A stretch of DNA of 64,000 bases from NCBI GenBank assembly GCA_973895155.1, contig OZ316898.1:14910330-14974329 (forward strand). The letters run 5' to 3'. Both the position numbers and the translations under genes were made by a program. Below the pieces are notes generated by a model. It did not search any database, was not told the DNA's origin, and was given only the letters and a program-made list of their open reading frames with translations. Of the stretch, positions 39,176 through 62,433 are shown one piece after another. Each line of letters begins with the position of its first letter. The stretch's first letter is position 1. The stretch comes from Marsupella aquatica (lineage: Eukaryota; Plantae; Marchantiophyta).

Positions 39176-39777
39176 GTTGAACAAGAGAATAGTGTCAAGT
39201 GGAGACCTCCATGATAAGGCAACCAAAGAGTGAATAGTGATATGGATGATTGACCTCACAAATTTTGCCCAAAACTTATGGTTTTATTGCTAGGAGTAGA
39301 TTAACTAAAAAAACATTGTCTAAATATTATGGGACTGTTCGATATATTACGGGGTCTCCTATCTGTTATCCATCTCAGAGAGGGTCTCTGAGATTTTGCG
39401 GATTGTGCCCGCCAATTTGTCAACACAATATAGAGACTTATCTCAGAGACTCTGACCGCTTCACGAGGACAAAAGTGATGGTAAACGACCTCTCCAAGAC
39501 ACATCTCAGAGACTCTCGCCAACATGAGAAGGACAATTGTGTACTGCTATGTATGTTGAAGAGGTCACTAACATAACGAGAACACCGCACTGAGATTCCG
39601 CTCAAAAAATTTAAACTTTTACTATTCAAATTTTTTTGTACAAAATTGTTCTAATTGGTCTATTACACAAAATTGGTCTAATTGTTCTAATTGGTCTATT
39701 ACACTAATGCAGGCTGATATTTGACATGGCATTCAATGTGGGCAAACAACTTTCACATTGGTGCTCAGTCAATGCCG

Positions 39778-40440
39778 CTAAAAATTGTCACGATTAACAG
39801 GAACACCATTATCAAGTCTTTCTTGAACCTGTTCAATATACCAGTTATCAACACGAGCCCTTTTCCAAGACTCTACTTGCGCTTGCTCAAGACCATATAC
39901 GGAGAGGTAGCAGTCCACTTCCTCTGAAGCACATAACAACCAAGAATCGATCCTTTCATTTAAGATACTATCAGACAACCGACTCCAAACATCGATCGGT
40001 GGGAACGCTCTCACTGAATCTCGAAAGAACAAAGGGGTCACTGTAGGCCATCTTACGCGACAAAATGCTATAGCTGTAGTCATTGCAGCCCATAGTATGG
40101 AGTTTGTTATCAAATGTCTCCATTTCCTGTTGATATGAGCAACTGATCGCACCGTCAGGAAGAGAGTCTTCACTGGATGATGACCATCCCGAACTGGATC
40201 CAAAACTGCAACACCTTCGAGCATTGACCGAATCGGGGGCCAGATGTGCAACTCCACAACCTTATCAGGCAACCCTGGAATCAAGTTACTCACTGGAGGG
40301 TGACATCGTAGGGGATAACGAGGATTCCAAATGCAAGCACGGTCTTGTTCCTTACTAGCCAGAAGCGTCCGCAATTCCAATCTAAGCTTTTGTTGTGTCC
40401 TATCAATCAAAAGCTCACGTTCGCCTGCGCTGCGATCCAT
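39778..40440 (-). CDS. Split F-box-like protein B2
   Basis: LIPGLPDKVVELHIWPPI ... VAHINRKWRHLITNSILW. Probable start is MDRSAG at 40440. Confidence 0.7.
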   Translation of the reverse strand: MDRSAGERELLIDRTQQKLRLELRTLLASKEQDRACIWNPRYPLRCHPPVSNLIPGLPDKVVELHIWPPIRSMLEGVAVLDPVRDGHHPVKTLFLTVRSVAHINRKWRHLITNSILWAAMTTAIAFCRVRWPTVTPLFFRDSVRAFPPIDVWSRLSDSILNERIDSWLLCASEEVDCYLSVYGLEQAQVESWKRARVDNWYIEQVQERLDNGVPVNRDNF

Positions 40441-40589
40441 AGTAAGTTTGTAACAAAAAAACATGCCTAATCTGAGAGCGGGCCGATGGTCTACCCTCCT
40501 ATTGTGACCCTTTCCATAGCAAACCCTAAACACTAAACTGACAAGGACAACGGATACATAATATCGGTCACATAAAATGGTCATTTATC

Positions 40590-41700
40590 CTAAACCCTAA
40601 ACCCTAAACCCTAGGCCCAAAACAAGTGACCCTATTTGGCTGTTTGGTAAATGTCGGCGAGGGTCTCTAAAATACAATGTCGGCGAGGATCTCCAAGATA
40701 CAATAAGGAAGGAAACCTGTTCATGTCGGTGGAGGTCGCCCAGATCAGACAATACCGGCATTTGATACAAGTTTGTCGACCTCAAAGTCAAGATTGGTTG
40801 GTCATTTTTCCTAAACCCTAAACCCTAGGCCCAACATAGGTGACCCTATTCAGCTGTTTGGTAAATGTCGGCGAGGGTCTCCGAAATACAATGTCGGCGA
40901 GGGTCTCTGAAATATCAGCGAGGGTCTCAGTAATACAATGTCTGCGAGGGTCTCCGAGATACAATGAGGAAGGAAACCTGTTCATGTTGGCGGAGGTCGC
41001 CGAGATCAAACAATACCGACATTTGATACAAGTTTGTCGACCTCAAAGTCAAGATTGGTTGGTCATTTTTCCTAAACCCTAAACCCTAGGCCCAACACAG
41101 GTAACCCTATTCAGCTGTTTGGTAAATGTCGATGAGGGTCTCCAAAATACAATGTCGGCAAGGGTCTCCGAAATACCCTGTCAGCGAGGGTCTCAGTAAT
41201 ACAATGTCGGTGAGGGTCTCCGAAATACCCTGTTAACAAGGGTCTCAGTAATACAATATTGGTGAGGGTCTCCGAGATACAATGAGGAAGGAAACCTGTT
41301 CATGTTGGCGGAGGTCGCCGAGATCAGACAATACCGGCATTTGATACAAGGTTACCGACCTCAGAGTCAAAATTGGTTGGTTAACACATTCATCCATTCA
41401 TAGGAACCGTTGATACATAATATCGGTCACATAAAACCACGTCTTTTTTCCTGAACCCTAAACCCTAGTCCCAAAATAGGTAACCCTATTCGGCTATTTG
41501 GTAAATGTCGGCGAGGGTCTCCAAAATACAATGTCGGCGATGGTCTCCGAGATACAATGAGGAAGGATACAATGAGGAAGGAAACCCTATTCGGCTATTT
41601 GGTAAATGTCGGCGAGGGTCTCCGAGATACAATGTCGGCGATGGTCTCCGAAATACAATGTCGGCGGAGGTCGCCGAGATCAGACAATACCCGCATTTGA
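40590..41700. repeat. Higher-order array: AAACCCTAGGCCCA blocks plus 23-bp TACAATGTCGGCGAGGGTCTCCGAAA subrepeats
   Basis: About 4 higher-order units of variable length, each with several motif-B copies. Confidence 0.88.
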
Positions 41701-44700
41701 TACAAGGTTGCTGACCTCAGTTAGAGTCAAGATTGGTTGGTTAACACATTGATCCATGTCGATATTCCTTTTGAAGATGTTTGCAAAGCACCAGTACAAG
41801 TGCTTGCACGGGAAGTAGGCTCTTCCCATAGACTCCCTGTACATGAAATCCTTGCAGGAGCAACTTGGGAAGACACAGATCTGTACGCAATGTATTGAAG
41901 TTTGGCCCCTGCAAGTGTTGTTCACCATGAGCCTCACGCCTGTAGCATTCCCTGTTTTGATTCTCCTCATTGATGTGCACACAATTGCCTCGGTCTTAGA
42001 ATTACGGATACGTGTGGCAGCATACTTGGAGGTGTCTGACCTCCTTCGCCTTGCCTGGCCATTGCGTCGAGTACCACGCTCATTAGGCATTGTAGGATCT
42101 ATCCGCTCTGGGTATGTGTTCAAATCCATTATGATGTCGCCAGCACTCACCAATTCATTCATAACATCTTCACCAAAAATGACGTCCACTCCATTGTTGT
42201 GCAAGAACAGGACCTCTTCTTCTGTAAGATTAGTTCCACGAGAGACAGGAAACTTTGAAGGCAGTGGTGGTAAAACACCGGTAATAAATGGCAAAGATGA
42301 TTTTGTGCAACACTGGTTGTTTGGGCAAAACCAATACGGATATGGAACACCTAGTTCATTAAATTTACTCCCAGCCAGCCAACAGATACCGACAACGCCT
42401 AATCCGCTTACTTTTAGTCCTGCCTCTCTGATAAATTGAGCACATACTCCCCGTTCCTTGCCTTTGAATGCACCTCGACAACCGGGACTCTTACCAATCG
42501 TTGAGATGCGAGCCAAAAAGAACATGCCTGGAACCAAATCACTTTCCTGAACACGTCTTCTCACGGGCTCCGGACGTGGGGTTGACCTCGTCCTTCGGGG
42601 TTCCACAATGACAACATCTGGTTCGCCCGAGCCATGAGAGCCATCGGATGACAGATCCACAACTTCAGCATCCTGGCTTTTCAAGTTTGCATCCCTATTT
42701 GCAATCCCCCTGAACTTCCTCTTCTTTGGTCTGGTTACCAAAACAATGTCAGGCCGGTGGGAATCTTCTACTACAACATGATGGCCAGCAGCGGCCTTCC
42801 CGCGTTTCATCGGAACCTTTTCTACATCTCCGCTAAGTGGGTCCGCGGATGAGAACTCACGCAAGTGTGGTTGAGTTACAGCGGTGTTCAATTTTGGAAA
42901 GAAAGATTCTACATTCCCAACGGCAGTAGCATCTCAAAGTCGAAGTTCAAACAAGCTCGGTCCCCGTCCTTTCCTCCCACTAAGTTTGTAGTTCTTCAAA
43001 GCTCCATTCTGGCTCAACGCGCGAGATGCATCCAGGGTACAAGATTGTACTAACCCAACCTTTGTACTAGATGAGGATTTACGCATAGATGCGTGTACCG
43101 ACTCTGCCCCACTGTGGTTAGGCATGAGTGCTGCCTTTTCTCTGTCCATCTCCTGCAATATTGTTCCAGAAAACATATCAATTTTGGTCATTTGTTATGT
43201 TCTAGGCAACAGACAAAATAGGTGTATCAGAGCGTATCTCGGAGAGCTTCGCCGAGATTCGACGTGTTGACGGATATCATGCATAGGGAGGGAAAGTGTT
43301 AAGACACTTACGAGTCTCAAAAAGTTTCCCCATTGAGAAAACCGAACAATCCACCAAGACATCCACGTGGTGAGCTCCTTTGCTTTTCCTGGTAGCGCAT
43401 TGCCCTCATTCCACCACGTTTTCAGCTTCTCAAAAACTCGATAGGCAAGAACTATATTACCGGCGTGCCGAAGTGAATCCAACAATTCTTTATGCTCGAA
43501 TCTCTTACTTGGGACAATGTGCTTCTGCATTCTCTGTACTGATTGGGCCCAGTGAAATGCATCACACCTCTCTCTATGGGAATTTACCTTTCCATCCCAA
43601 AATTCATTGCGGATCGCATTCCACCCAGCAGCAGCATTATCAGCCATAAATCCACAAAACTGCACATTCTTCAGCCCATGTTCTTCACATACCCTCCTCA
43701 TGACCTTCCATGCAGTTTGCAATGACTTGCTGTCTTATGAAACTAGCTCACAGACAAAGATGGTGCATAAGCCTCGATAGAAATGGTCATATACGTGTGC
43801 AGACATAGTGCACCATCTATTGTCAAGTATGCGGTGCATGACATCAGACATCACCCAAGAATGCTCAAGATCCCCTCCTGGCTGCATTCTTCGAACAAGG
43901 TCCACTCCTGACCCGGGACCTTTTGTACTCATTTTAAAAATGTGCGGCCGCTCATTTGTTCCCACGTTCTGGGCTGGGAACAAAACACTTTGGATAAAAG
44001 GAAATTCAGTCTGCTTCCGCATCTCTAGTATCATGCTTACATCAGACGACACATGAGAGTATCTCTTGATGCTCCTGATCATCGAGCGGAAAACAGATTC
44101 GTCGCCCAGAATGGCCAACATTTCATCAAGGTCGTTTGCCTCCTCAGTGGTGACCATCTCAGCCACTGGGTCCTCAAAAATATCTTTAAGTTTTTGTACT
44201 GCTTCGACCTTGATCACAGACGGCCGTGCAGTAGGACTCCTCTTCAGTTCCTCCTCCACGAGATTACGCACAAGTGATCTTTGATCTTTGTTGTGCGTGA
44301 ACATTGCGGGATTGGTGTGATTTCCAACATGCATGGCAACACGAGACTTGTGACAGTAATTAAGGTCGTCCTTGGTTGGAGTGATGTAGTACATCTCACT
44401 TGGGCATCCAGCTATACACCTAGGAGGCCTCCTGCATAAGCTACAAATTACACTTGATGGGGGAACGTCGCATCCAACAGGGAAAGGCAGCTCATTTGTG
44501 CCTGCTCGATCTCGGGTCCACTTTGCAGAATTGTGCTCTTTGCGCTCTTCAAAATTCTCACAATCCCTATGCATACAACGCAGAGAACCCAAACACTTCA
44601 CAGTTTGGATCTTGTAAGAGTGACTGTTGTTGTTTAGCTTTGGGCCGATATTTGCTCCTGTCTCAATCAACCTGCTCCACATGTAACAATCATTCTTTCG

Positions 44701-45994
44701 CTCCATGCCCAAAAAGAAACACCCCTTCGAGTATGGACCTGTAAAAGGTGGCAACTCAAAAACATGGTCTCCATCATACACTTCTGGTAATCGTTGAACT
44801 CTCTCCGGCAATTTTGTGCTCAAAATCTTACGAGCAGCTTGTACACATCGAGAGGTCCTTTTCCCGTGTAGCATGGCATGAACAACACTGACAAGGAACT
44901 CATCCTTCCATACTGAATTGCCTTCTCAAAGACCCTCTCTGAGAAGGAATGCCTTTGATCGAGGTGTCTCCTTTGGTGGAGTATAAGCAGCTCCTCGATC
45001 CTCCCAAAATTGGGATGATGTAGACTCGGGTGTATTCGTCCGAGAAGGTTCACCATCTTGAAGACCCCCTCTAAGATTGAATGCACTTGATCGAGATTTC
45101 TCTTTCACTGGTGTATCACCATCTCCAAGATCCTCCCACATTTGGAATGAATTGGACCCAGGTGTACTTGTCCGAGGAGGTTCACCATCTCGAAGACCCC
45201 CTCTGAGATTAAATGCACTTGATCGAGGTTTCTCTTTCACTGGTGTATCACCATCTCCAAGATCCTCCCACATTTGGAATGAATTGGACCCAGGTGTACT
45301 TGTCCAAGGAGGTTCACCATCTCGAAGACCCCCTCTGAGATTGAATGCACTTGATCGACGTTTCTCCTTCACTGGTGTATCCACATCTCCAACATCTTCC
45401 CACATATGGAATGAATTTGACCGAGGTGTACTCAATCGAGAAGGTTCACCATGTCGAAAACCCCCTCTGAGATTGATTGCGCTGGGTCGAGGTGTCTCCT
45501 TCACTGGCTCATCTGCCTCTCCAACATCCTGCCACACTGGCGACGAATTTGAGTGGGGTCTACCAACTCGGTGAATGTCCTCCCAAAATTGGGACGATTT
45601 CTGACACGGTGTATTGTTCCATAATTCACTCGGTTCATCAATCTATGGGGAGTGTGCAAAATCTCCAAGACCTTCACTAACATTGCATGAACTTGCTTTC
45701 TTTTTGCAGATAGTATAGGACACGCCACATTTCAGATACCACTCTCGCTCATCTCCATCGCCTTTGGATTCAGCAGAAGTGGACAGCCCATCTTCTCTCG
45801 TAAATCATGAAATCCCCTACCTTCAAACCAAATCGGCTTGCTACTTCATGCTCCTTAGTGACTCGAACACTGTCTCCCTCAATCTGACGAAAAACAACAA
45901 CATCCCCGGTTACTGATCGGATTATCACAAGAGAAGCCATGTGTCCCAAATCCACACTGGGAATGTTAGTCCCCAGGCCTTCGGCTTTATACAT
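41680..45994 (-). pseudogene. MULE-family DDE transposase with GCM/WRKY-like Zn domain and C-terminal SWIM finger
   Basis: CLGSLRC...C...C..C...HVGNH; WVMSDVMH, FMADNAAAGWNAI, RCDAFHW, NHSGAESVH; SWIM CSCKDF...CKH. Intron 43202-43311; several stops. Confidence 0.82.
44930..45540 (-). repeat. 120-bp coding minisatellite (~5 x 40 aa) in the transposase N-terminus
   Basis: SSAFNLRGGLRDGEPPRTSTPGSNSFQMWEDLGDGDTPVKEKPR repeated. Confidence 0.9.
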
Positions 45995-46408
45995 CAGACG
46001 TTAAAGTCTTGGTACCACTTTATGCCAATAATACCGCACTTTCAGGCTTAGAACTTGGGCGGTACATTAGACGTTAAAGTACCCGTACTTTATGCCAAGA
46101 ATACCGTTCCGGACAACGTGCGTACCATATAACGATTGTAGAATCTGGAGCGTACATATAACAATTGTACCACAAAGAAGGTACCTATTTGCTAGCGGCC
46201 GCCAAGAAGGTATAGATTCTACACATGTACAAGGTACATATTTGCCAGCAGCCACCAAGAAGGTACATGCAAACTCTGGGGATGTAGTATATTCTCCAAG
46301 ATTCCATCTGACCTTGCCTAAAACATTTCTTCTTCTTCCGTCGTGTGGCTTATAATCCCCTCTGCAAATATGCCTGACTTGAAGGATGAATAAATAGCCT
46401 TCCGACTT

Positions 46409-48630
46409 CCTACTCGGCGAGGGTCTCTGACATGCGGTCGCGCTATCTGGCGAGCCTCTTTGTGGTGGATTAGGGACTTCCTCGGTCGTTGAGTGTCATT
46501 TACTTTTCATCCCAAGTCATTCTCGGCGGGGGTCTCCGAGATTCTGAGATGGATTCTCATAGACTTTTATCTAGAATCCTACTCAGCGAGGGTGTCTAAC
46601 ATGCGGTCGCGCTATCTAGCGAGCCTCTTTGTGGTGGATTAGGGACTTCCTCGATCGTTGAGTGTCATTTACTTTTCATCCCAAGTCATTCTCGGCGGGG
46701 GTCTCCGAGATTCTGAGATGGATTCTCATAGACTTTTATCTAGAATCCTACTCGGCGAGGGTCTCTGACATGCGGTCGCGCTATCTGGTGAGCCTCTCTG
46801 TGGTGGATTAGGGACTTCCTTGGTCGGTGAGTGTCATTTACTTTTCATCCCAAGTCATTCTCGGCGGGGGTCTTCGAGATTCTAAGATGGATTCTCATAG
46901 ACTTTTACCTAGAATCCTACTCGGCGAGGGTGTCTGACATGCGGTCGCGCTATCTGGCGAGCCTCTTTGTGGTGGATTAGGAACTTCCTTGGTCGCTGAG
47001 TGTCATTTACTTTTCATCCTAAGTCATTCTCGGCGGGGGTCTCTGAGATTCTAAGATGGATTCTCATAGACTTTTACCTAGAATCCTACTTGGCGAGGGT
47101 CTCTGACATGCGGTCGCGCTATCTGGCGAGCCTCTCTGTGGTGGATTAGGGACTTCCTCGGTCGCTGAGTGTCATTTACTTTTCATCCCAAGTCATTCTC
47201 GGCGGGGGTCTCCCAGATTTTGAGATGGATTCTCATAGACTTTTACCTAGAATCCTACTCGGCGAGGGTCTCTGACATGCGGTCGCGCTATCTGGCGAGC
47301 CTCTTTGTGGTGGATTAGGGACTTCCTTGGTCGTTGAGTGTCATTTACTTTTCATCCCAAGTCATTCTCGGCGGGGGTCTTCGAGATTCTGAGATGGATT
47401 CTCATAGACTTTTATCTAGAATCCTACTCGGCGAGGGTCTCTGACATGCGGTCGCACTATCTGGCGAGCCTCTCTGTGGTGGATTAGGGACTTCCTTGGT
47501 CGCTGAGTGTCATTTACTTTTCATCCCAAGTCATTCTCGGCGGGGGTCTTCGAGATTCTAAGATGGATTCTCATAGACTTTTACCTAGAATCCTACTCGG
47601 CGAGGGTGTCTGACATGCGGTCGCGCTATCTGGCAAGCCTCTTTGTGGTGGATTAGGAACTTTCTTGGTCGTTGAGTGTCATTTACTTTTCATCCCAAGT
47701 CATTCTCGGCGGGGGTCTCTGAGATTCTAAGATGGATTCTCATAGACTTTTACCTAGAATCCTACTTGGCGAGGGTCTCTGACATGCGGTCGCGCTATCT
47801 GGCGAGCCTCTTTGTGGTGGATTAGGGACTTCCTCGGTCGCTGAGTGTCATTTACTTTTCATCCCAAGTCATTCTCGGCGGGGGTCTCCCAGATTCTGAG
47901 ATGGATTCTCATAGACTTTTACCTAGAATCCTACTCGGCGAGGGTCTCTGACATGCGGTCGCGCTATCTGGCGAGCCTCTTTGTGGTGGATTAGGGACTT
48001 CCTCGGTCGCTGAGTGTCATTTACTTTTCATCCCAAGTCATTCTCGGCGGGGGTCTCTGAGATTCTAAGATGGATTCTCATAGACTTTTACCTAGAATCC
48101 TACTCGACAAGGGTCTCTGACATGCGGTCGTGCTATCTGGCGAGCCTCTCTATGGTGGATTAGGGACTTCCTCAGTCGCTGAGTGTCATTTACTTTTCAT
48201 CCCAAGTCATTCTTGGTGGGGGTCTCCGAGATTCTAAGATGGATTCTCATAGACTTTTACCTAGAATCCTACTTGGCGAGGGTCTCTGACATGCAGTCGC
48301 GCTATCTGGCGAGCCTCTCTGTGGTGGATTAGGGACTTCCTCGGTCGCTGAGTGTCATTTACTTTTCATCCCAAGTCATTCTCGGCGGGGGTCTCCGAGA
48401 TTCTGAGATGGATTCTCATAGACTTTTACCTAGAATCCTACTCGGCGAGGGTCTCTGACATGCGGTCGCGCTATCTGGCGAGCCTCTCTGTGGTGGATTA
48501 GGGACTTCCTCGGTCGCTGAGTGTCATTTACTTTTCATCCCAAGTCATTCTCGGCGGGGGTCTCCCAGATTCTGAGATGGATTCTCATAGACTTTTACCT
48601 AGAATCCTACTCGGCGAGGGTCTTTGACAT
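46409..48630. repeat. 169-bp tandem satellite, 13 copies, at least two motif-B sites per unit
   Basis: CCTACTCGGCGAGGG at 46409, 46578, 46747, 46916 ... 48606 (13 x 169). Confidence 0.97.
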
Positions 48631-48839
48631 TTAGTTTCCACCCTAAATTATTCTCGGTGGGGGTCTCTGAGATGGACTCGGGTCATTTGGGCAACAATAT
48701 TTGTACTCGGCGAGCCTCTCTGAGATGGTAGATTTGTACGGACACGCGATCCATACAAAATTACATTGTAAAAACATTGAAAAGTACTGTACGGTCAGTT
48801 TTTGCATGCACTTTTTTGTTCATCCTTGTATTTTGGCTA

Positions 48840-49845
48840 GGGTCTGACATCGAATGTGGGATAGAACCAATTTGGGTCCTTCATTTGAAACGGAATACCC
48901 TTAATTTCATCTCGGAGAGGGTCTCTGAGAGACACAGTGTATGTTGTAGCTAACCCTTTGAAACTGTTAACAGGGTCAACAAGTGGTGGCATCTGGCCAA
49001 AGTACGCCGACGACTCCATCTCAGAGAGGGTCACCGAGAGGCTGGGTCTCATTTGGCGACCTTTCTGAGCCAATATGCGATCTGGGAGAACTGCTCTCTA
49101 GCCACTTGGGGCACACGACTCCATCTCAGAGAGGGTCTCCGAGCGATTGGGTTGCAATCTCGCTTCCCTTTCCACCCAAGACGCGATTGACAATTTTTGC
49201 CGTTAGGCCGTTTGGGCCACACCACTCCATCTCAGAGAGGGTCTCTGACATTGGATGTTGGATAGAACCATTTTGGGTCCTTCCTTTGAAACGGAATACC
49301 CTTAATTTCATCTCGGAGAGGGTCTCTGAGAGACACAGTGTATGTTGTAGCTAACCCTTTGAAACTGCTAACAGGGTCCACAAGTGGTGTCATCTGGCCA
49401 AAGTACGCCCACGACTCCATCTCAGAGAGGGTCTTCGAGAGGCTGGGTCTCATTTGGCGACCTTTCTGACCCAATATGCGATCTGGGAGAACTGCTCTCT
49501 GGCCACTTGGGGCACACGGCTCCATCTCAGAGAGGGTCTCCGAGCGATTGGGTTGCAATCTCGCTTCCCTTTCCACCCAAGACGCGATTGACAATTTTTG
49601 CCGTCAGGCCGTTTGGGCCACACCACTCCATCTCAGAGAGGGTCTCTGACATCGGATGTTGGATAGAACCAATTTGGGTCCTTCCTTTGAAACGGAATAC
49701 CCTTAATTTCATCTCGGAGAGGGTCTCTGAGAGACACAGTGTATGTTGTAGCTAACCCTTTGAAACTGTTAACAGGGTCCACAAGTGGTGTCATCTGGCC
49801 AAAGTACGCCCACAACTCCATCTCAGAGAGGGTCTCCGAGAGGCT
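48840..49845. repeat. 401-bp tandem repeat, 2.5 copies, ~4 motif-B sites per unit
   Basis: ATAGAACC at 48861, 49262 and 49663. CTCCATCTCAGAGAGGGTCTCCGAG recurs inside each unit. Confidence 0.95.
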
Positions 49846-49929
49846 AGCAACCTTTTTGACCCAAGAAGCGTACTTTTCTACCGTGAAGTTCGCTAGAGTG
49901 TTGGACTTTTTTCTACTTCTCATATTTTA

Positions 49930-49965
49930 CCCTAAACCGTAAACCGTAAACCCTAAACCCTAAAC
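49930..49965. promoter_or_regulatory. Telo-box-like (CCCTAAA)n tract upstream of cargo gene B
   Basis: CCTAAACCGTAAACCGTAAACCCTAAACCCTAAA. Confidence 0.45.
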
Positions 49966-50915
49966 ATAATTGGCCACCTTTATTAAGTCTCCTCCAACAA
50001 ACCCTCCTTGATCTTGTTGACTTGTGCTCTTCCATTTCCTCTTTGAGCTGACGCACCGAGATGTTGACACATCTCAGTAGGCCTCGGAATGAAATGACAG
50101 CAAGGATCTCCTACATTCGGACTCATTTGAGTTGTAGGCCGAAGTCCCTAATTGTACCCTAAATGTATCCTAAACTCTCTCGTACTAGTGGTGGTCAGTA
50201 CTCGCGTTAGCATTGTGTACTTTCTTGTTTGGGCCATTAACATGTACGTATCGAAATATAGTTAGGATCTCCCGTATCTATTGCGTACTTTAGTGTTGTG
50301 CAATACGTGCAGTACGTTATTCCTTGAAGTGGATGTCGTTCCTTCCTCGTCACTCTTCCACGGTGTGACACCTTAGGTTTGGCGCTCGTCTTTATCACTA
50401 ATCCTCGGACCTTCTCACTCTGCCTCACTCTTTTGCGTCCCTTACTCGTTCGCGCTCTAATTCGCGCTCTTCCTCAATCTTCGCATATTGGTCTGTGCAA
50501 TCTCTCACTTCTCCGCGCTCACATCCGCGTTGTTCCTGCTCTTCTTCAGTCGTCCCACTCACGGTAAACTCTCCTGTGCAACCCTGTTATCATGTCTACT
50601 AGATTGCGTTGGTGTTTTGAGGCAGTGAGCGTGTGGTAGCTTCTCCGTGAGCGTTTAGGCAACATTTTCTTGTGCGCATTTGCGACAGTGATTTTTAGTG
50701 AACGTTGGTGATTCTCTCAGGTTTTTCTCTTGGCTCCCCCTTTTTCTTGATATGTAAAATCCATTTGTAGATGAATCAAATGTGTGAGAGGCTGGACCCC
50801 ATGTATCCTTGAAAACTGGCTCTCTCGGCGGGGCTCGTTGAGATCTTGTCAGGTTTATAGGTCGAGCTATTGCCAAGTAATAACTCTTTCATTTCTCATG
50901 TAATCTAAGGTCAAA

Positions 50916-53900
50916 ATGCCAAAGAGGAAAGACTCGACTGGAGCTGGACCTGCCGACAGCCAAATTAACTTCTCAGGGGAGTAAGAAACCACGATCCAAG
51001 TCTCCTTTGCCAGTCACATCTCGATTGACGCGCTCACAGGGTGGTCCACTTATGGAGTCAATCGACTCTAGGAGGAAGTTTGAGCCAAAGCAGATATCAT
51101 TTGAGCCTATTGGAGCGGCGGAATTGGCTGATATTGCTGAGAAGGGAGCCTGGGAGTCTATCATCTCCAAGTATGAGACAAAGTTTAGTAAGGATCTGCC
51201 CCGGATCCCCTTGTGCCGTCTCATGCCAATGGAGGCAGTGAGGAATCTTCAGGATGAGTCGGTTGCAAAATTAAAAAAAGGATTCAAAGAGAGCAGCTAT
51301 GTTGTGAAGCTCAGCGAGTTCCACATTACTGAGTTCAATGAAATTGGAGAAACGCAGACAGTGACAGACTTCAAGCCATTTTGGGACCCTCTATGGACTC
51401 AGCTCAATGAACAGTTTGAGCAAGAGTGCGATGCATCAGAGGAGTTCAAAGTCCTTAAGGACAAGATGTTTTGGGTTTTTGATGGAAACCACAGATACAC
51501 AGCCTGGTCCGCAGTTGCTTCTGAGTATCCGGATCAATTGCAATACCATCCGTGCGTCAGATTCTCTCTTTTGAATGCTGGGAAGGACGGATTCAAGAAG
51601 GTTGAGCAAGCAATGCACGCTCTCAACTCGTAAGTACTCTCATTCGCGTCTTTTTGCAAAATGTGATTACCCGTTTGTGTAAACCTTGTGTGCCATCTTG
51701 GAGAGCCTCTCTGAAATTGCCGCTATGAGTACTGTTTGTCATTTTCAGGATAAGTGCAACTGTCGTGAAGATGTCCTGGTTTAATGACGCTGATCGGGTT
51801 GCAAAGCTATTGAACACTCCATTGGAGGAGTACAGTTCGCTCATGTCAAAGGAGACAATGGAGGCTTTCATGAAGGCCCAAAATCGAGGACATGGGAAGA
51901 CTTGGTACTCGAAGAATATGAAAAAAGAAGCCGCTGTGTACATCATGTCTTGGTCAAACATTGAAGCGGGACGAATCAATATCTCCAAGGAGATGGCACA
52001 AGACGCAGCTCGTGGGCACCCGTGGAGTGTGAAGAGAACTGAGGAGGAGACGGAGGCAATGATTATTGTTGCATGCAAGGCCTGGGACAACAAGTTCCCC
52101 AAGCTTGCGGCCTACGTGAATCCGGCCAATGGAGACCAGTTCATGCCGGTATGTTGGCAGCTGTATCACAAGTTGTCAAAGGACGCCAAGCAGGGTGTGA
52201 TGAATGTACAGGTTGGCTTGGACAGGGTCCGCTTGTTTGCTGGGGCTTGGGTAACTGCAGAGTGCAGAGTAAAGCTATTGAAAGCTCATTTTGGAACGGA
52301 GGAGGAGAAGAGTATGTATCACCATCCATGTAGCAATGGTGATGCTGCAATTAGATCCTGGTTAGCGGTCTGGTCAATGTGGTGTTACATTGACCACGTT
52401 GGTTGTGTGATTTTGACCGATTTTGCTGCAAAGGCCTACCAAAGACAGGTGTACCGTGAGTTTTCCGGGACAGAGGAGGAATTTGCAGAGCTATACAGAA
52501 GGCTTTATCGAGCTTATGTGCAAGAGAAATCACTGAAACTAGGCGGGGAAATTTGGATTGACGGAAAGGCCACGGTCTTGTTAAAAGAATTGTGGAAAAA
52601 GCGAACAAAGAGGTGCGTGACAAGATTTCTAATCAATCAGGAGAACATGAATGCATCCGTATTGAAAGAGCTGCCATGGGCACTCACATCTTGGATGGAG
52701 CCGAAAGGGAGCCTTAGCATGTATCCATGTGATGGCCAAATTCCTAATGGCATAGTAGTCTGCGATTGGGAACGTCAAAACTGCCCATGGTATATGGAAT
52801 ACCGTGACTGGAATACTTTTATCGATGACGTTGAGAAGGAGTGTGCAATGAAGCTGAAGGACCAACAGGAGCCTACAAATTACTACGATATATCCAAGCT
52901 ACGACAATTGACGGACTCTATGCCCCAGGCAATAGCGTTGGAGGCCATAATCCCAATGGACCCAGCCTATGATGGGAAAAAGGCCCGAAAGGAAGGAGAC
53001 GAGAAGAAGGTCGACAAGGAACAATCCGCCGAGGCCAGTCAGTCAGATTCTATAAGCACTCCAACAAAGACCCCATCAGGTATTACTCAATTCCTTTCAA
53101 ATCAGGTGGTGGCTTGCATTGGAAAAAACCTTGGCTGGGTTGGCGAGGCTCGCCGAGATTAAGTGTCTGGTCCAGTCCAGATGTCGGCGAGGCTCTCCGA
53201 GATTAAGTGTCTGGTCCAGTCTAGATGTCGGCGAGGCTCGCCGAGATGAAGTATTAGTTGAGTAATAAGTTGCTTGCATATAATGAACCCGATCTTGGCG
53301 AGGCTCGCCGAGATGCAGTTGCCATCATGAAGCTCATCAATTTGCATCCTATGCAGGTCATGCAGAGATCCAAATGGAACCTGATTCTATCAAGAGCAAG
53401 GGTGTAGAGCCGGCTACAAAGGCAGCAGTTGAGGACGGTCCAGGGGTTTCGTAGGGTCCAGGGCACAAGGATAAACAACCAATAGTTGAGTTGGATCCAG
53501 ACGAGGCTCCACTGCAAGAATTTGACTTGCCTCCGCATGAGGCTCCTGAAGTACAAGATGAATTGGCTGACGAGCAGCAAGGTGAGGATGATGTGGGTGA
53601 GCAAGAGGAAGAGGAGCGAGAGGAAGAGGACAAAGGACAATCCAGAGACGAAGGGCGCTTGTCTGATATCTCTCCTGTGCCTTACCGGCCACCATTACTG
53701 TCACGGCAAAAGGAAAAGGCCTTAAAAAGAAAGCAAACTAGGCGACCCAGAGCTCCCAAAGGGAGCCCAAGCAAAGCACATGACGAGGAATTTCCTCCTC
53801 TTCCTTCCCCCACTGAGTCGCCTCCCCCGCCCGGCACTAGAGAGGTTCCGCCCACAACCATCCAACCTGACCCCACATTGGAAAATGAGGAGGATGAAGA

Positions 53901-56900
53901 GGCCCTTGGAGAAGAGGATAATACAGAGCTGGAAGGAGTAAGGCGTCCTTATGCCAATACCATGTCTTCCCAGAGCAGACATATGTATTTTAGGTGGTCT
54001 CCAAATCTATTTACAACTTTTTTTGATGCGGCTAAAGAAGGTACCGAACCCCCTGTAGTTAGTAAATTGATCTCATGGTGCAGAAAGCTATTGCGGGAAG
54101 GTTTGCGTCAAAATGCCTGGAGAAAAGGGGGAAGCGAGTGAAGACTGGTGCAGATTTAATTCTGATACATATGGGAACAGACACGCGTATGGTCGAGGGT
54201 AAGTCCACCCCGTTGTGGAATTCATTCCGGGAGGATGACTTGAACCGGGTTCAGGAGTTTGCTCGAGATGTCCTTGATTCCGAAGGACTGTTTGCCATCG
54301 TGCACAGTGGTTCGCTTCGGCACTCAACTTGCATTTATGATGCATTAGTTTACGAGAATACCAACTGGGGGTTGAAAGAAAGCTTCTTTATCTGGAATGA
54401 CACACCCACCTACGATGGTAGGACTGGGAAGCGAGTAAGTCCCATCAATTACCTACTTCTTCATTTATTTTTTATTCCAATGACTTACTATCCTAAACTG
54501 AGGAAGTCTGACCTCTGAATATGTTTGGCCGATCCAAAGCGAATATCTCAAGCTAGACCTGTGGGGGTTTCAATCTGCTGTGGAGATATGCCCAAAGAAT
54601 GATGTGGCACCAATTAGTGCAGAGCTCGATATGAAGAGTAGGAATGGGCTAACGAACTATACATCCAAGAAGAATCAGGTTAACGATCCTTTTGCGGGCA
54701 CATTGTCGCCAGCAACGCTCCAATGTATCATCTAATATACAACACACCCTGGGGCAACTATCCTCACTTTCAACGCACAGTTTGGGGCAATATTCAAGGC
54801 GGGTGAAAATTGCGGGCGGATGGTGTTTGGGACTGAATCCTATCCTCACTTCGGAACTTGTGCGTAAGACCAACTGGCACAACTGGTTGGAGTGATCTCC
54901 CCGGAGGAGGAAGAGGTGGTCCGTTCAAAAGCCAATCCAGAAAAGCGCAAGAAGAAAAAGCCGGCAATACTCCCAACAACATGTAAGTTTTCTAGCGTTT
55001 GACGTTGTTCATTTCATATTTGCTTGCTCGTTGCAATGGTTGACAATAGAGGGATACAAGTCAGCGGCCTCGCCGATATGTATGCATGTCGGCTGACCTC
55101 GCTGACATTCATAGTGTCTGGCCTCCTCTACAAGCGAGGGCAAGTCCTAACTTGAGATGCATGTTGGCGGACCTTGCCAAGATTCATTCCTCTACATGCA
55201 ACTCAGGAAGAGTCATCTTGGCGGGCCTCTCCAAGATCCGTCTAAGGAAGAGTGATCTCGGCTGGCCTCTCCAAGATCCATCTCAGGAAGAGTTCATCTC
55301 GGCTGGCCTCTCTGAGATCCGTCTCAGGAATAGTCATCTCGACTGGCCTCTCCGAGATCCGTCTCAGGAAGAGTGATCTTGGCTGGCCTATCCAAGATCC
55401 GTCGCAGGAAGAGTCAATCTCGGCTGGCCTCTCTGAGATCCGTCTCAGGAATAGTCATCTCGGCTGGCCTCTCCAAGATCCGTCTTAGGAAGAGTCAATC
55501 TCGGCTGGCCTCTCTGAGATCCGTCTCAGGAATAGTCATCTCGGCTGGCCTCTCTGAGATCCGTCTCAAGAATAGTCATCTCGGCTGGCCTCTCCGAGAT
55601 CCGTCTCAGGAAGAGTGATCTTGGCTGGCCTATCCAAGATCCGTCTCAGGAAGAGTCAATCTCGGCTGGCCTCTCTGAGATCCGTCTCAGGAATAGTCAT
55701 CTCGGCTGGCCTCTCCGAGATCCGTCTCAGGAAGAGTGATCTTGGCTGGCCTCTCCAAGATCCGTCTTAGGAAGAGTCAATCTCGGCTGGCCTCTTTGAG
55801 ATCCGTCTCAGGAAGAGTCAATCTCGGCTGGCCTCTCTGAGATCCGTGTACTGAAGAGTCATCTCGGCTGGCCTCTCCGAGATCCATCTCAGGAATAGTC
55901 ATCTCGGCTAGCCTCTCCGAGATGCGTCTCAGGAAGTCATCTCGGCTGGCGTCTCCAAGATCTGTCTCAAGAATAGTCAATCTCGGCTGGCCTCTCTGAG
56001 ATCCGTCTCAGGAATAGTCATCTCGGCTGGCCTCTACGAGATCCGTCTTAGGAAGAGTGATCTCGGCTGGCCTCTCCGAGATCCGTCGATCCATGTCGAC
56101 TACCTTCCCCGACAGATGCCTTCTTGTTTACGTCTATTTTGGGCGCAATACATTATTTGATTGGATTTAAGTATAACTTAGTAGCAGTTCCCGACAGGAC
56201 TACCGAGTCAGCTATAGCGGAATGGGACAGCCAGGACAGACGGCTTGTCAAGCTCGCATGGGAGGAAGCTTCGGCATATTTCTTGCCGGAGAAGTTAACC
56301 CTTTCGTGCTACGCTGCTGATACCTATCATGAAGAAATAGTGCCTCGCTGTGTACAAGAGAGAAAAAGGAAAACTCTCAAATTTGTCAATGATAGGGCAA
56401 AAGAAGCTCAATCGGATGAGAGTAGCTCGGTAGGAAGTGACAGTCTCCAAACTCACCATGTAAGTATAAGATTATCAAGCTCCAGTTCCGAAGAGTAATG
56501 TTTGAATGAATTTACCTTCATTGCAGCTCAGGAGAGACCTGAGCAACCAGTGAATGAGGGGCTGACTCCCCGGGCAGGAGTGAAAGAGGTGGGGCTTGCA
56601 AACAAAGGAGTGCCCGCACAACAGCAACCATCCAAATTTTTGGCGATAGTGAAGAAGGCATTGGACCCCAAGGCGGACCAAAAAGAGGTCATAGTGACAA
56701 TCGAGGATGTGCACTTGACGAGGGCACATTTAAAATGCTTGAGGCCAAAAAAATGGATCACTTGCGACGTCATCAATGCTTACATTGCTTTACTGGAACG
56801 AAGAGCACAAACCCTTCATAAACCCAAGGCCATGTTATTGCCAACACATTTTTACCAAGTGATGACAACTCCAGAATATAACTTCAACGCAGCGTTGGCA

Positions 56901-57305
56901 TATTGGCGGGGCATTCAAATGTGGGAGCACGAGTACGTTTTAATCCCCGTCTACCGGCCAAAACATTGGGTACTAGTTGTGGTTGATACTACCTTGCGGC
57001 AACTGCATTTACTTGATCCGCTTGTGCCCGAAGCACAGGATGGCACATAAGTGTTCAAAGTAGCTCAGTTTCTTTCGGACCTCTCCATCTTGCGGGGTCG
57101 TACCTTGTTATGTCCATTAGAATGGCCACGCATTTACCGAGATAACATTCCAGGTCAAGGGGATGATTACAATTGTGGTGTATATGTCATTATCTACATG
57201 GAGCGTATTTCTGGAGGCGGCGTACTGAACTTTGACCCTGCACTTATAGACATCATGCGGCAAAAGATTGTTGTGGACCTTGTCTGCCAGACAATTACCC
57301 TGTAG
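50916..57305 (+). pseudogene. Cargo gene B: ParB-like domain, helical region, acidic linker, degenerate N6/N4-MTase fold, Ulp1 SUMO protease (about 6 exons)
   Basis: ParB: IPLCRLMP...VAKLKKGF...FWVFDGNHRYTAW. MTase: ADLILIHM, then FARDVLDSEGLFAI, then SPATLQCII*YTTHPGATILTFNAQFGAIFKAGENCGRMVFGTE (54541-54982 frame). Ulp1: WITCDVINAY, HWVL, LDPL, QGDDYNCG. Predicted GT-AG introns 51630-51748, 53080-53356, ~54435-54539, 54983-56115, ~56460-56531. Confidence 0.72.
55200..56088. repeat. 40-41-bp tandem minisatellite (~22 copies) of motif B, inside an intron of gene B
   Basis: Unit ATCTCGGCTGGCCTCTCCGAGATCCGTCTCAGGAAGAGTC(A). Confidence 0.95.
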
Positions 57306-57725
57306 AGAGGATGGAAGATGGAGACGCAGCCTAGTGGAATTTAGTTCAGAAAATTGAGATAGACAACATCGTTGTAAAGTACAAAGTTTAATAAAAAGTG
57401 TGTCATCCAAACGTTCTTAATGTGGCTCCTATTTGATATGCTATTTTGTACACGTTGCTGGGTATGTTTTCATCTTGGCGAGCTCAGCCGAGATGGAACA
57501 ACACTCCAAGGATATCTCAGAGAGGGCGCCAAGATGGTTAAAAAGGGCACCAAGATGGTCAGAGAGGCAGCCGACATTACTAATTGTCCGAACCAAAACA
57601 ATGTCGGAGTGGACTCCGACATAGGGTTTGACTGTGGGTGTGAATTAAGTCCATGTCGGCGGCGTCGCTGAGTTTCGGGCATAGACTGATATCAGTGACT
57701 GATGAAAGTCACTGATAACTGATGA

Positions 57726-60400
57726 AGTTGTGTACCTCATTTTGAAGAGAGCGACGAGTACACGACACCTTCCCCAGAAAAGATACTTCCATTCTTTGAA
57801 AGTATTGTTAGTCAATTCGTCCAATGTGGGGAATGGGCTATATGCTTTGGCCAGGGAACAAACTTGATTCAATGCTTAATGGTAAGTTTTGAGATTTATA
57901 TTTTGGGGTTTCAATTTTAAGATTATTTAGATTTTTATATTCTCAATTAATATTGTGAACTAATTTCGGCTTTTTTTACAGGATGCTGGATCCAATGTAA
58001 AATATTCCTGCCCTATGGCAACGCATAGGGAGTTGTCTTGTTTCTTGCAACACACCATGGCGACAATTGATACAACGCTGTCATTGATTGACCTAGTACG
58101 GGCTAGTATAGAAAAATGTATAGATAAATTAATGAAGTACCGTCCATCCGTAACTGCTCTCAGGGCTGATGTTTTGGATGTCCTCCACGAACAACATATC
58201 CCTGATAATATTTGTAATCAATTATTGCAAGAGTATGCCCTCTCTAAAGATTCCGATCGATTGTACATTCGACCAACGGAGTACCCTCGTGGGCCAATCC
58301 AAGGTAGGTTACTTTTGAACCATCTTACTTTTTCTTGCATCACGCGAACATGCACGTGGACATTCTTAACATTTCTTTTCACGCGAATATGCGCGTGAGT
58401 CATTCTTATCTAATGATCTGATTTTATTCAGATCAAGTTGATTGCGGCTTCAATGTTGAGGATGCAGGGAGCAATGGTGATGCGGATGGTGAGGGGGAAG
58501 GTGACAAGGAAGGTGACGCGGATGGGGATGTCAATGACCAAGATCCAGAGTGGATGACCGATACGCAGAATGACGTCAGAGATTTCGACAATAGCAAGGA
58601 AGAGAGTGACGGAGAGGAGATGAAGGACGCTGAGGATGCTGAGGACGCTGATGAAGAGGACGAGGAGATGGAGGGTTCTGAGGACGCTGAGGACTCTGAT
58701 GAAGAGGCCACACAGGAGCCTTGACATGAGGTGGACCGAGAGGAGGCGGCCCGGCAGGAGGAGGCCAGAGAGGAGGAGGCCCGGCAGGAGGAGGCCTGGC
58801 AGGAGGCGGCCCGGTAGGAGGAGGCCCAACAAGAGGCGGCCCGGCAAGAGGAGCTTCAAAAGAAGGAGGCGACCCGGCAGGAGGAGGCCCGACAAGAGGC
58901 GGCCCGGCAAGAGGAGCTTCAAAAGAAGAAGGCGACCCGGCAGGAGGAGGCCCGACAAGAGGCGGCCCGGCAGGAGGCGGCCCGGCAAGAGGAGGCGGCC
59001 CGGCAGGAGGCGGCTCGACAAGAGGCGTCTTGACAAGAGGCGGCCCGGCAAGAGGAGCTTCAAAAGAAGGAGGCTAAGAAGAAAAAGGCAGCAACTAGAA
59101 AAGAAATTGCCGCGAAGAAGAAGGAAAAAACCAACGCTGAGGAAGCCCAGGCGGAGAAAGCCGAGGCTGAGAAAGCGGAGGCGGAGAAAGTGGAGGCTGA
59201 GAAAGCGGAGGCGGAGAAAGCCCAGGCTGAGAACGCGGAGGCAGAGAAAGCCCATGCTGAGAAAGCCTAGACTGAGAAAGCGGAGGCTGAGAAAGCCGAG
59301 GCTGAGAAAGCCGAGGCTGAGAAAGCCCAGGCTGAGAAAGCAGAGGCTGAGAAAGCGGAGGCGGAGAAAGCCCAGGCTGAGAAAGCCCAAGCTGAGAAAG
59401 CAGAGGCTGAGAAAGCGGAGGCGGAGAAAGCCCAGGCTGAGAAAGCCCAGACTGAGAAAGCGGAGGCTGCGAGAGTCCTTTTAGTGACAGAGGCAAATAG
59501 GGCCAAGGCGGAGAGTGTGGCGGCTGAGAGGCCGCTGGCCGAGAGGATGGCGGATGAGATCGAACAGACCGCAAGACCGGAGAGGGTGGAGGTGGAGAAG
59601 TTGGAGGCGGAAAAGGTCCATTCCACAAGACTGGAGAGAGAAGAAGCCGCAAGACTGGAGAGGGTGGAGGCGGAGAAGGTGGAGGGAGCGAGGAAGGAAG
59701 CCGAGAGGGCCAAGGATCTTCCGCTTATTCCTGAGGCACAATGTCTACCAAAAATAAAGCTGAATTTGAAGAAGCCTTCTTCACCCTCAGTTGCAGTTAA
59801 GAAGAAAATATTAGACTATTTTCTTCGCCCGGAGTTTGAATTTAACGATCCACCCTTAAGTACGGTCTCATTGGATGATTAGAATAAATATTCACTGGAG
59901 CAGCTCCGAGTCCAAGCCGTCCTTGCTTTGCAATATTGGAAGGGTCTTTTGATTACCAAGGAGAAGACTGCCACTGCATCCAGAATGGAGACAATCATCA
60001 ATAATATCCGCTTTTCCGAGAATCGAGTGCAAGACCTAGGAACGTCTTTGGCACCAGACTCGGCTCAAGTCGTTAAGAGACTAACAACTGACTTGACGCG
60101 ACCGGGTTCGTGGTCTCAACCCCGATATACTGCAGAGGTTACTCACGCAGAAATTGTGGCACCGGATATTTTGGAATCGGATTCCCAGATTGTGGAATAT
60201 TTAAATCAAATGCCACAACCATTCAAAGGTCTTCCCGCCTCATCGCTCCAACCTTCGCAAACTGGTCTGGTGGAGCGATCACTGCGGTCTTGAGGAGGGC
60301 TGAAGGATGTTGTTGCGAAGGAGGCACCCAAGAGATTAGCTACGAAAAGGCCGGATCCACCCAATCCAAAGGTCATTCGCAAGCTATAAGCTTAAAGTTT
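57726..60400 (+). pseudogene. Cargo gene A, continuation: C-half of MTase-like fold, acidic tract, EAARQE/EKAEA charged helical repeats
   Basis: PEKILPFFESIVSQFVQCGEWAICFGQGTNLIQCLM, intron, DAGSNV, in frame with ORF 58015. It lies in the same genomic frame as ORF 36987-37628. Confidence 0.55.
58735..59470 (+). repeat. 15-bp coding microsatellites (GAGGCGGCCCGGCAG and GAGGCTGAGAAAGCC)
   Basis: Encode (EAARQ/E)n then (EAEKA)n in the frame that continues into ORF 59484. Confidence 0.9.
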
Positions 60401-60521
60401 CTATTATAGCCGTCATTATTTTATTATTGATTTGTTATTGTTTCTGTTTTCTGAGGTAGAACCCTTAGGCTACAACCTCAGTACGTTATTTGAAGGCATA
60501 CTGAAATCTCTATTTTTTGCA

Positions 60522-61311: not shown

Positions 61312-61571
61312 GTAATACACTTCATTTCAGTGTCTCTCTTTGTAGTCACGCAACCGTTCGCGTTATAAACTTATTTTCATTTCTTAATGTTTTACAGAAG
61401 CCTATCCCGAAACCCCCTGATCGAGTATCGAAGGCACCAATCCGGAAGTCCGGTGATCGTCTGGAGGCGGGAAACAAACAGACCGTTCTAGTACGTTCTC
61501 CAAAACCTGCGGCACAAAAATCACAGATACAGATGACGCCTAATCCATCGACAAAGAAATCACCGGTTTAG

Positions 61572-62302: not shown

Positions 62303-62433
62303 ACATTTATTGTTTATTATCAATTATTATTTATAAATTGATTGAAATTGAACTTTATATTTTGGGAGTGACGCACCCGGTCGCGTGGTTGTTTGCAATT
62401 GCATAATATGAGAATCGAATTGTTCATTTACAG

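Follow-up and report, generated by a model that had tools for sequence, protein, structure and literature searches.

The window analysed here is a stretch of 64,000 nucleotides from the liverwort Marsupella aquatica (GenBank assembly GCA_973895155.1, contig OZ316898.1, positions 14,910,330 to 14,974,329 of the forward strand). It contains a Mutator-like DNA transposon of about 20 kb and, within this element, gene B, which joins a predicted ParB/Srx domain, a region with the predicted fold of the beta-class N6/N4 DNA methylases and, in one probable form, an Ulp1-type SUMO protease. Gene B is real and more than a set of chance motifs, and its copy in the window is dead. The element ends, together with arrays of a palindrome repeated within the element, are the main clue to its function, and neither is mentioned in the first-pass annotation. 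Gene B may be an accessory gene of the transposon, whose product would recognise the element's own palindromes and counter silencing, a reading whose chances we place a little short of even.

A Mutator-like element and its insertion site

The element is delimited by two imperfect terminal inverted repeats of about 55-60 bp, spaced some 20 kb apart at the ends of 37618-57738; it starts with GAG and terminates with CTC. Such inverted ends are of the type seen in Mutator-like elements (MULEs), and the identical target-site duplications on the two flanks (ATTTTGAAG) measure 9 bp, within the 8-11 bp given for this group (PMC6446971). The empty site was also observed. In contigs from all four public runs (X1-X4, from two studies; their type is unrecorded), the left flank is joined straight to 57739. 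These runs cover introns as well as flanks, and they therefore behave as DNA. Inverted ends, duplication and empty-site contigs support the mobile context in which a first-pass annotation, made from the letters of the window, had placed gene B. The insertion point lies inside a gene of a second, different element.

The 20-kb element also encodes gene A, its presumed transposase (Table 1). The scan of the gene A open reading frames (ORFs) against the Pfam and NCBIfam libraries gave no transposase match, Pfam MULE included, and only a weak SWIM finger at the C-terminus (E 0.12). The assignment of gene A consequently relies on the element ends and on a D..D..CxxH pattern, read by eye, which we take to represent the DDE and CxxH motifs of a transposase.

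Structure and decay of gene B

Gene B was resolved into six exons, with five GT donors, four AG acceptors and one acceptor reading CAA. After correction of two indels it comprises 1,536 codons and a stop, or 1,291 codons in a form that ends in exon 5. The motifs on which the first-pass annotation had relied are all present in it: DGNHR at 51481-51495, ADLILIHMGT at 54150-54179, TTHPGATILTFNAQFG at 54739-54786 and GRMVFGTE at 54814-54837. The window copy has accumulated two frameshifts and four stops, each located in Table 1, and the splice acceptor of exon 4 is probably lost too.

Table 1. Features of the 20-kb element and of gene B (positions in the window)
Feature	Position	Strand	Remarks
Mutator-like DNA transposon carrying gene B	37618..57738		20,121 bp; inverted ends, 9-bp flanks, empty-site contigs
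Left target-site duplication ATTTTGAAG	37609..37617	+	right-flank copy identical
Right target-site duplication ATTTTGAAG	57739..57747	+	left-flank copy identical
Left terminal inverted repeat	37618..37678	+	holds 2 copies of the 13-bp palindrome ATCAGT(G/C)ACTGAT
Right terminal inverted repeat	57685..57738	-	
128-bp repeat	38036..38272		3 palindrome sites
Two F-box-like cargo ORFs of the inner element	38448..40584	-	similarity to flanking-element ORFs
26-bp-unit array	40649..41700		15 palindrome sites
Gene A, presumed transposase	41680..45642	-	ORFs in one frame, broken by in-frame stops
169-bp and 401-bp arrays between genes A and B	46408..49845		20 palindrome sites at <=2 mismatches
Gene B exon 1	50916..51629	+	ATG; 4 extra bases near 50963; predicted ParB/Srx domain
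Gene B exon 2	51749..53079	+	conserved, mainly helical; candidate DNA-recognition part
Intron 2 palindrome sites	53142..53314		44-bp repeat and solo site
Gene B exon 3	53357..54434	+	acidic linker with TAG 53452; frameshift near 54126 (1 base missing); methylase N-half (HMGT at motif IV)
Gene B exon 4	54538..54982	+	methylase C-half (TFNAQFG at motif I); TAA 54733 and 54865; acceptor inferred
Intron 4 array	55202..56087		22 units of about 40 bp, 22 palindrome sites
Gene B exon 5	56188..56459	+	three in-phase acceptors ending 56181, 56184 and 56187
Gene B exon 6	56532..57305	+	Ulp1/C48 SUMO protease; TAA at 57048

Related copies of the gene were followed through the variants found in contigs of the four runs (40 of 1217 rows listed). 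The 4-base insertion near 50963 is absent from them at all depth in X1, at most of the depth in X3 and X4 and at about one quarter in X2. The base missing at 54126 is present at all depth in 4/4 runs. An intron at 54126-54140 was also considered and is ruled out by this extra base in the related copies; the break is a frameshift, and the methylase N-half runs on from exon 3. Both TAA codons of exon 4 had been ascribed to CAA>TAA changes. The proposal holds for 54865, where C accounts for more than 90% of depth, and is ruled out for the first stop, 54733, where the related copies have G or A at all depth and T is absent in 4/4 runs. The listed coding indels of diverged copies are all multiples of three (3, 6 and 6 bases); in one diverged contig, the 16 listed differences fall on third (8), first (5) and second (3) codon positions, too few to be weighed.

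The acceptor of exon 4 most likely lies at 54535-54537, judging from sequence comparison. The CAA found there in the window is TAG in a diverged copy, seen in the loose ends of contigs, and an exon begun at 54538 aligns without gap across the exon 3-4 junction with proteins of the liverwort Riccia. The Riccia gene model P0155 stops just past this same junction, which suggests a shared intron.

Homologues of gene B

An HMMER search of 1.84 billion representative sequences with exon 1 returned 221 proteins at E<=0.001; a word-based protein search with the same exon gave 0 matches among 299 candidates. Exons 1-2 align with protein P0153 of Riccia sorocarpa at E 7.5e-68 (for exon 2, identity is 27% across 461 columns), and the methylase N-half aligns with it at 1.3e-9. 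Species names were obtained for 15 of the 30 homologues looked up, namely Riccia sorocarpa (9), Adiantum capillus-veneris (3) and A. nelumboides (3), so that all homologues with a species name come from liverworts or ferns. Of 208 proteins, 11 combine the ParB signature with a methylase motif (8 from Riccia and 3 from Adiantum, in one liverwort and two fern species), and the fusion of the two domains is therefore old. In a tree of 148 ParB domains (quick mode), the window sequence groups with five unnamed proteins (97), nested in a 49-row set that includes 13 Riccia rows (98); the tree is unrooted and no direction is claimed.

No close phage relative was found in the viral-contig and phage searches. 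Pattern matches numbered 109 in viral contigs and 85 in metagenome contigs, and none was confirmed as a related locus. The phage search with exon 1 gave no match, and the Riccia methylase had only weak phage matches, none better than E 0.01 in the 20 records listed of 106.

Two side observations concern the annotation of this family. The Riccia proteins P0151, P0153 and P0154, with others, carry the source name 'Trimethylguanosine synthase', and fold matches indicate beta-class DNA methylases instead. A language-model atlas returned, as leads only, an unnamed plant cluster (0.84) and the fungal DUF3723 (0.82) as look-alikes of P0153 residues 165-700. DUF3723 is a conserved cargo gene of the Starship elements, in the description of which the word 'ParB' does not occur; its likeness to P0153 hints at a recurrence of ParB-like domains among giant elements of eukaryotes.

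The C-terminus of gene B and the Ulp1 exon

Exon 6 matches Pfam Peptidase_C48 (E 6.7e-15) and SENP2 (E 1.8e-20). In the alignment with SENP2, the His-Asp-Cys triad and the oxyanion Gln are all kept, with the stop at 57048 in the window copy. Exon 5 lacks an in-frame Met, and exon 6 has its first one at residue 101, inside the protease domain; Ulp1 therefore needs an upstream exon. The intron separating exons 5 and 6 is canonical, 72 nt long and of phase 0 (CAT/GTAAGT...CAG/GAG).

Exon 5 is likely part of gene B, since diverged copies preserve the phase of the exon 4 donor (contig loose ends at 54962), three in-phase acceptors precede the exon, and its translation resembles the C-terminal tails of the Riccia proteins. 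The score of this last alignment was reached by 6 of 2000 shuffles; a profile of the Riccia tails ranks exon 5 first of 1259 frames, yet at E 1.1. In view of the splice signals, a form of gene B that contains Ulp1 quite probably exists. The fusion with Ulp1, less certain in the first-pass annotation, thus gains in-phase canonical splice sites; on the other hand it is absent from the named homologues, and exon 5 can end the protein.

This last point leads to an alternative in which Ulp1 stays outside the protein. As in Riccia, gene B would then stop with exon 5, and the Ulp1 exon would be reached from a different upstream exon or only rarely. Left unspliced, exon 5 reaches a stop at 56496-56498, and the resulting end, VSIRLSSSSSEE-stop, aligns with Riccia ends such as VNLSSDEE-stop, in keeping with named homologues that lack Ulp1. 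The canonical phase 0 intron and the position of the first Met argue in the opposite direction. We consider this alternative, which is compatible with the other readings of gene B, somewhat unlikely.

The short form (56460-56498) and 10 of the 11 aligned Riccia tails end in V-x-L-S-S-D/E-E-like strings, which we take to resemble a SUMO-interaction motif. If this label is right, both splice forms would be SUMO-related. In the gene model P0060 of Adiantum capillus-veneris, a ParB domain and a methylase C-half are followed by an NIF phosphatase in the place of Ulp1. The C-terminal partner may thus vary within the family, or P0060 could be a merged gene model.

Palindromic sites in the element

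The palindrome ATSTCGG-N9-CCGASAT is found in the element 12 times exactly, 40 times with at most one mismatch and 74 times with at most two, versus 0 sites at <=2 mismatches in the other 43.9 kb of the window. With up to three mismatches, 93 sites lie inside the element and 3 outside. A first-order model predicts 0.17 sites where 74 were found at <=2 mismatches, and twelve other spacers (3-15) give 0-8 sites versus 74 for N9. The sites are distributed over seven arrays, whose unit lengths and flanks differ, and 9 solo positions, and the exons of gene B hold none. T or A stands at the CG in 53 of 96 half-site mismatches, which is the pattern of methyl-cytosine decay. The motif was chosen after the arrays had been seen and the copies within an array are not independent, so that the weight of this evidence comes from the recurrence of one fixed spacing in unrelated arrays.

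Two other palindromes occur in the window. The element ends carry ATCAGT(G/C)ACTGAT, which occurs nowhere else in it, and ACGCGA-N4-TCGCGT belongs to the flanking element; of its 31 sites in the window, the 20-kb element contains none. A candidate motif amplified in tandem arrays, in the non-coding parts of its own element, is the arrangement found with accessory genes of the VANC/Kaonashi type.

The internal palindromes could alternatively be bound by the transposase, gene B being a helper or a cargo gene with another target. A Mutator transposase has been reported to activate cognate copies in a sequence-specific manner (10.64898/2026.08.24.746577). A 132-bp in-frame coding repeat of gene A, within 44924-45536, contains three of the 23-bp sites, and some sites are located less than 400 bp from the ends. 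However, the ends bear the different palindrome, and most sites are 3-10 kb away from them, clustered around and inside gene B. Gene A is on balance an unlikely binder of these sites.

The ParB/Srx domain and the helical region

The ParB/Srx identity that had been read from the DGNHR signature is well supported at the level of the predicted fold. A model of 51067-51627 (pLDDT 90.9, built from 94 sequences) was searched against 48,161 chains, and all 11 rows with Z>=2 are ParB/Srx-superfamily proteins. The best of them is KorB (Z 7.0, rmsd 2.5, 89 aligned); for Atu1540, SspE and BrxU, also among the structural matches, membership of the superfamily is our presumption. Foldseek returned sulfiredoxin, Noc, ParB, KorB, SbnI, PadC and SerK, the top rows (Srx, Noc and ParB) having E values of 0.047-0.07 that are weak if taken singly. 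The strength of the assignment is therefore in the agreement of the matches and not in one strong score. Pfam detected neither ParB nor methylase on the window's own ORFs, and the search of PDB sequences with the ParB profile gave just 2 rows, both unrelated.

The G-x-x-R phosphate-binding signature of the superfamily is present in gene B as DGNHR. Among 150 matches listed, DGNHR occurs in 78 and EGNHR in 17, and the conserved box-like residues are shared by most of 94 aligned rows (R59 in 81, G140 in 88, N141 in 93, H142 in 89 and R143 in 81). The domain is nevertheless not a standard ParB. The signature of the ParB-type CTP clamps is GxRR (PMC10770331). For the ParB-helical part of the Riccia protein, a homodimer prediction scored 0.00, with an uncertain fold.

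The methylase domain

With X placed at its breaks, the window methylase aligns over 205 residues, from motif IV to past motif I, with a profile made from 10 methylase domains of Riccia (E 1.5e-20). The Riccia members themselves match Pfam N6_N4_Mtase at E 1e-5 to 5e-5, under the curated cut-off, and phage methylase families as well. When PDB sequences were searched with the methylase profile, beta-class methylases made up 7 of the 9 rows obtained, and no row had an E value better than 0.044. A language-model atlas search with the methylase N-half gave no match >=0.9. In structural terms, the model of the Riccia protein P0154 matches CcrM at E 1.6e-11, and M.BceJIV (Z 16.2, rmsd 3.9, 188 aligned), CcrM, MboIIA, RsrI, PvuII, HpyAVI and N4CMT (Z 14.1) at Z 14-16. 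The beta-class order with motif IV before motif I, suggested by the first-pass annotation, is thus seen on P0154 and is carried over to the window by the profile and by alignment with an annotated phage methylase. The methylase region of gene B is accordingly predicted to have a beta-class N6/N4 methylase fold.

In this alignment, motif IV reads DLPY in the phage enzyme, DLPT in Riccia and HMGT in the window, and motif I reads DNCMGSG, DFAGGWG and TFNAQFG respectively. A pattern search in 208 proteins, which is Riccia-biased because the searches were seeded with a Riccia protein, located motif IV in 32 homologues (30 Riccia, 2 Adiantum). None of the 32 has the canonical (D/N/S)PP(Y/F/W), and the forms found are DLP(S/T) in 16, DMP(S/T) in 11, DLSS/DMSS in 3, DVPF in 1 and DFPI in 1, with an aromatic fourth residue in one homologue only. 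Motif I was located in 28 homologues and is exactly DFAGGWG in 15 of them. The Riccia members largely keep the FxGxG loop, which is gone from the TFNAQFG of the window.

These replacements predate the death of the window copy. No variant with a share >=30% is listed inside HMGT or TFNAQFG in any of the four runs, although adjacent lesions are corrected; the related copies are restored in frame with the motifs unchanged, which indicates that the motifs were lost while the frame was intact. The comparison supports motif loss as a property of the element family and not of the decayed copy. The methylase of the window lineage is thus likely a pseudo-enzyme, as had been suggested, and the absence of DPPY or SPPY from the intact homologues agrees with it. 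The accompanying claim that both key motifs are replaced is true of the window lineage and not of the whole family, since Riccia keeps D-x-P and DFAGGWG. The Riccia-type domain, with its plausible motif for binding S-adenosylmethionine (SAM), may still bind this cofactor.

The conservation in Riccia could also be taken to mean that the methylase has remained catalytic by means of a non-canonical active site and, once loaded under the guidance of ParB, deposits 6mA or 4mC on the element. D-x-P is found at motif IV in 27 of 30 Riccia members, the intact DFAGGWG recurs as counted above, the acidic residue after motif I is kept, the whole beta-class fold is retained, and an annotated phage methylase has DLPY at the aligned position. 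On the other side, 31 of the 32 homologues are without the aromatic fourth residue, and in the window lineage His replaces the catalytic Asp, both prolines are gone and the motif I loop is altered, no variant with a share >=30% being listed there in 4/4 runs. An active methylase appears quite improbable.

Proposed function of gene B

On the reading favoured here, the intact gene B protein would recognise the palindromic sites of its own element. A dimer would load at ATSTCGG-N9-CCGASAT by means of its ParB domains and the helical regions that follow them, and the methylase fold, which in the window lineage would no longer methylate, might serve as a dimerisation or DNA-contact module. Beta-class methylases are dimers (PMC10406627), an arrangement that would suit a palindrome. 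The longer splice form would add Ulp1, stripping SUMO from nearby silencing proteins, and the shorter one would end in a tail resembling a SUMO-interaction motif. In this manner the protein would keep the element out of silent chromatin. Self-recognition with an anti-silencing effect is favoured on account of these dimers and of the parallels with VANDAL elements, red-algal transposons and VirB, detailed in the next section.

Several observations weigh against this proposal. The co-occurrence of gene and motif rests on one element. Transposases can activate cognate copies, so that gene A could be the binder. In the ParB domain, GNHR replaces GxRR, 89 of the 94 rows aligned having His in place of the first Arg; the best Z of exon 1 is only 7.0 and its Foldseek E values are 0.047 or worse; and the matches include sulfiredoxin and SerK, ATP-using enzymes, the ParB/Srx fold being found in such enzymes also (PMC10770331). 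Exon 2 gave no Pfam or NCBIfam match and no helix-turn-helix was shown in it, with one PHROG of unknown function at E 0.18. The methylase model is that of Riccia P0154 and not of the window protein, and has a low-confidence pLDDT of 56. Lastly, Ulp1 is absent from the Riccia and Adiantum homologues (found in 0/28 by Pfam and in 0/208 by pattern).

A more far-reaching version of self-recognition, rather improbable, can be formulated for the whole family. The giant transposons of land plants would carry a eukaryotic ParB-type clamp, with nucleotide-dependent loading at parS-like palindromes, VirB-like spreading over 20 kb, Ulp1 dragged along to lift silencing and a palindrome private to each element family. 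The family would then be a standing mobile reservoir of beta-class folds, the Riccia type perhaps binding SAM.

The protein could also be a mechanical part of transposition that coats or clamps the element and pairs its ends, or tethers excised copies to chromosomes, in the manner of ParB on plasmids. The ParB fold with its conserved box-like residues, the spread of sites across the whole element and the recurrence of ParB-domain accessory genes in giant eukaryotic transposons would all be consistent with such a role. However, no ParA-like gene is present among the ORFs scanned in the window, and the Ulp1 and F-box-like cargo indicates protein modification or chromatin and not partition; a mechanical role is very unlikely. 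The dead window copy might suggest that gene B is neutral cargo, captured without a role, and that slippage produced the arrays. This is hardly credible given the intact frame and multiple-of-three coding indels of related copies, the single proteins of one liverwort and two ferns that unite ParB with a methylase, and the single fixed-spacer palindrome common to seven unrelated arrays. Taken as a whole, the interpretation of the first-pass annotation is partly supported.

Relation to known systems

If self-recognition holds, gene B would work like the VANC genes of VANDAL elements in Arabidopsis. The short motif to which VANC binds is multiplied in tandem arrays, and VANC removes methylation (PMC5735166); some VANC genes carry Ulp1 (Kaonashi, KIU; PMC13317346). 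PMC10398659 has no mention of KIU or Ulp1, and the statements on Kaonashi therefore rest on the review PMC13317346. Both systems comprise an accessory gene of a Mutator-like element, motif arrays in non-coding parts and Ulp1 on the same gene. They differ in that VANC sites are non-palindromic, of 8-9 bases, on elements described as lacking terminal inverted repeats, whereas the element of gene B has inverted ends and a 23-bp palindrome. Gene B is moreover built of a ParB/Srx domain and a methylase fold; it is set apart from VANC by domain content.

A second parallel is provided by the giant Plavaka and Mutator elements of red algae, in which PAG3 (ParB and 2OG oxygenase) lies beside inverted-repeat arrays and PAG2, a separate gene, combines an N6-methylase with SET; self-binding is proposed there, not shown (10.1101/2025.02.11.637652). 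In both cases a ParB-like domain and an amino-methylase travel on DNA transposons of 17-20 kb with adjoining inverted-repeat arrays. Compared by description, gene B departs from PAG2/PAG3 in uniting the two domains, in having lost the methylase motifs, in the Ulp1 exon that comes after them and in its land-plant hosts. No oxygenase or SET match was found in the gene B ORFs or in 28 homologues.

VirB, a ParB-type protein, loads at its site, slides and counters silencing (PMC10770331). Gene B shares with VirB, ParB, KorB and Noc the predicted ParB/Srx fold and palindromic loading sites, which in the element are candidates, and is distinguished from them by GNHR in place of GxRR, a long insertion in the domain and its nature as a eukaryotic gene with introns. 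The Riccia model, for its part, has the fold and motif order of CcrM, M.BceJIV, M.RsrI, M.PvuII, N4CMT and DN4MT1; unlike these enzymes, which have DPPY or SPPY, the plant transposon family has neither. The first-pass annotation had cited the 4mC enzymes of bdelloids and Marchantia. Bdelloid N4CMT and Marchantia DN4MT1, the latter with the motif TSPPY (10.1101/2021.02.12.428880), are host genes with an intact SPPY; they stand as analogues by fold and are not shown to be kin of gene B.

Methylases of transposons that are inactive were described by Iyer et al. (PMC4738411), together with loci of ParB-linked methylases, among them ParB-terminase phage methylases, that acted as donors to eukaryotes. 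The methylase domains of DIRS1 elements are, like that of gene B, transposon-borne amino-methylases with damaged catalytic residues; they belong to group 2 (PCIF1-like) of that work, the available part of which names no land-plant ParB-methylase. None was described as a transposon family in the literature searched either, most subscription journals and Repbase being outside its scope.

Gene B is consequently not filed under VANC, ParB clamps or active methylases. The combination of domains is new; transposon self-targeting accessory proteins are of a known kind. The parts of gene B (a ParB/Srx nucleotide switch, a beta-class methylase dimer and a SUMO protease) have known bacterial biochemistry, and every base of the candidate site is specified, which opens loading, spreading and anti-silencing to direct tests, in Marchantia or Riccia for instance. 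Giant transposons bearing ParB and methylase domains are extended from red algae to liverworts and ferns, and a family that databases label 'hypothetical' or 'trimethylguanosine synthase' receives an explanation.

Other features of the window

The second, flanking element is seen at 22304-37617 and 57748-64000. It carries a DUF7869 ORF at 22304-24820 (Pfam E 1.9e-42, read with X), F-box-like ORFs, its own Ulp1 (60505-61368) and three NIF-phosphatase ORFs (61592-63743). The F-box-like ORFs of the inner element are homologous to those at 33404-34998 (best E 1.7e-12), which at 33852-34998 match the Pfam F-box at E 0.016-0.052, and the Ulp1 domains of the inner and outer elements are 29% identical; the two different elements have a cargo set in common. 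The flanking gene interrupted by the insertion, at 35050-37617, resumes at 57748. Its segments (35422-36246, 36975-37617 and 57750-57878) give a weak ParBc_2 match (Pfam E 0.09), and one stretch looks methylase-like by eye. Its identification as a further ParB-methylase was tried and is unsupported, the profile comparison with the gene B family giving a probability below 1%.

Short plant-telomere-like (CCTAAAC)n tracts adjoin the arrays at 40589, 40810, 41071, 41454, 49949 and 23353. A DDE_Tnp_4 ORF at 8812-12433 (Pfam E 5.5e-11), with an ORF on the opposite strand, is probably a Harbinger-type remnant. Finally, a BAHD-type transferase host gene at 14492-16417 is intact (Pfam E 3.7e-83); together with the restriction of the named gene B homologues to liverworts and ferns, it gives the window a plant-like character.

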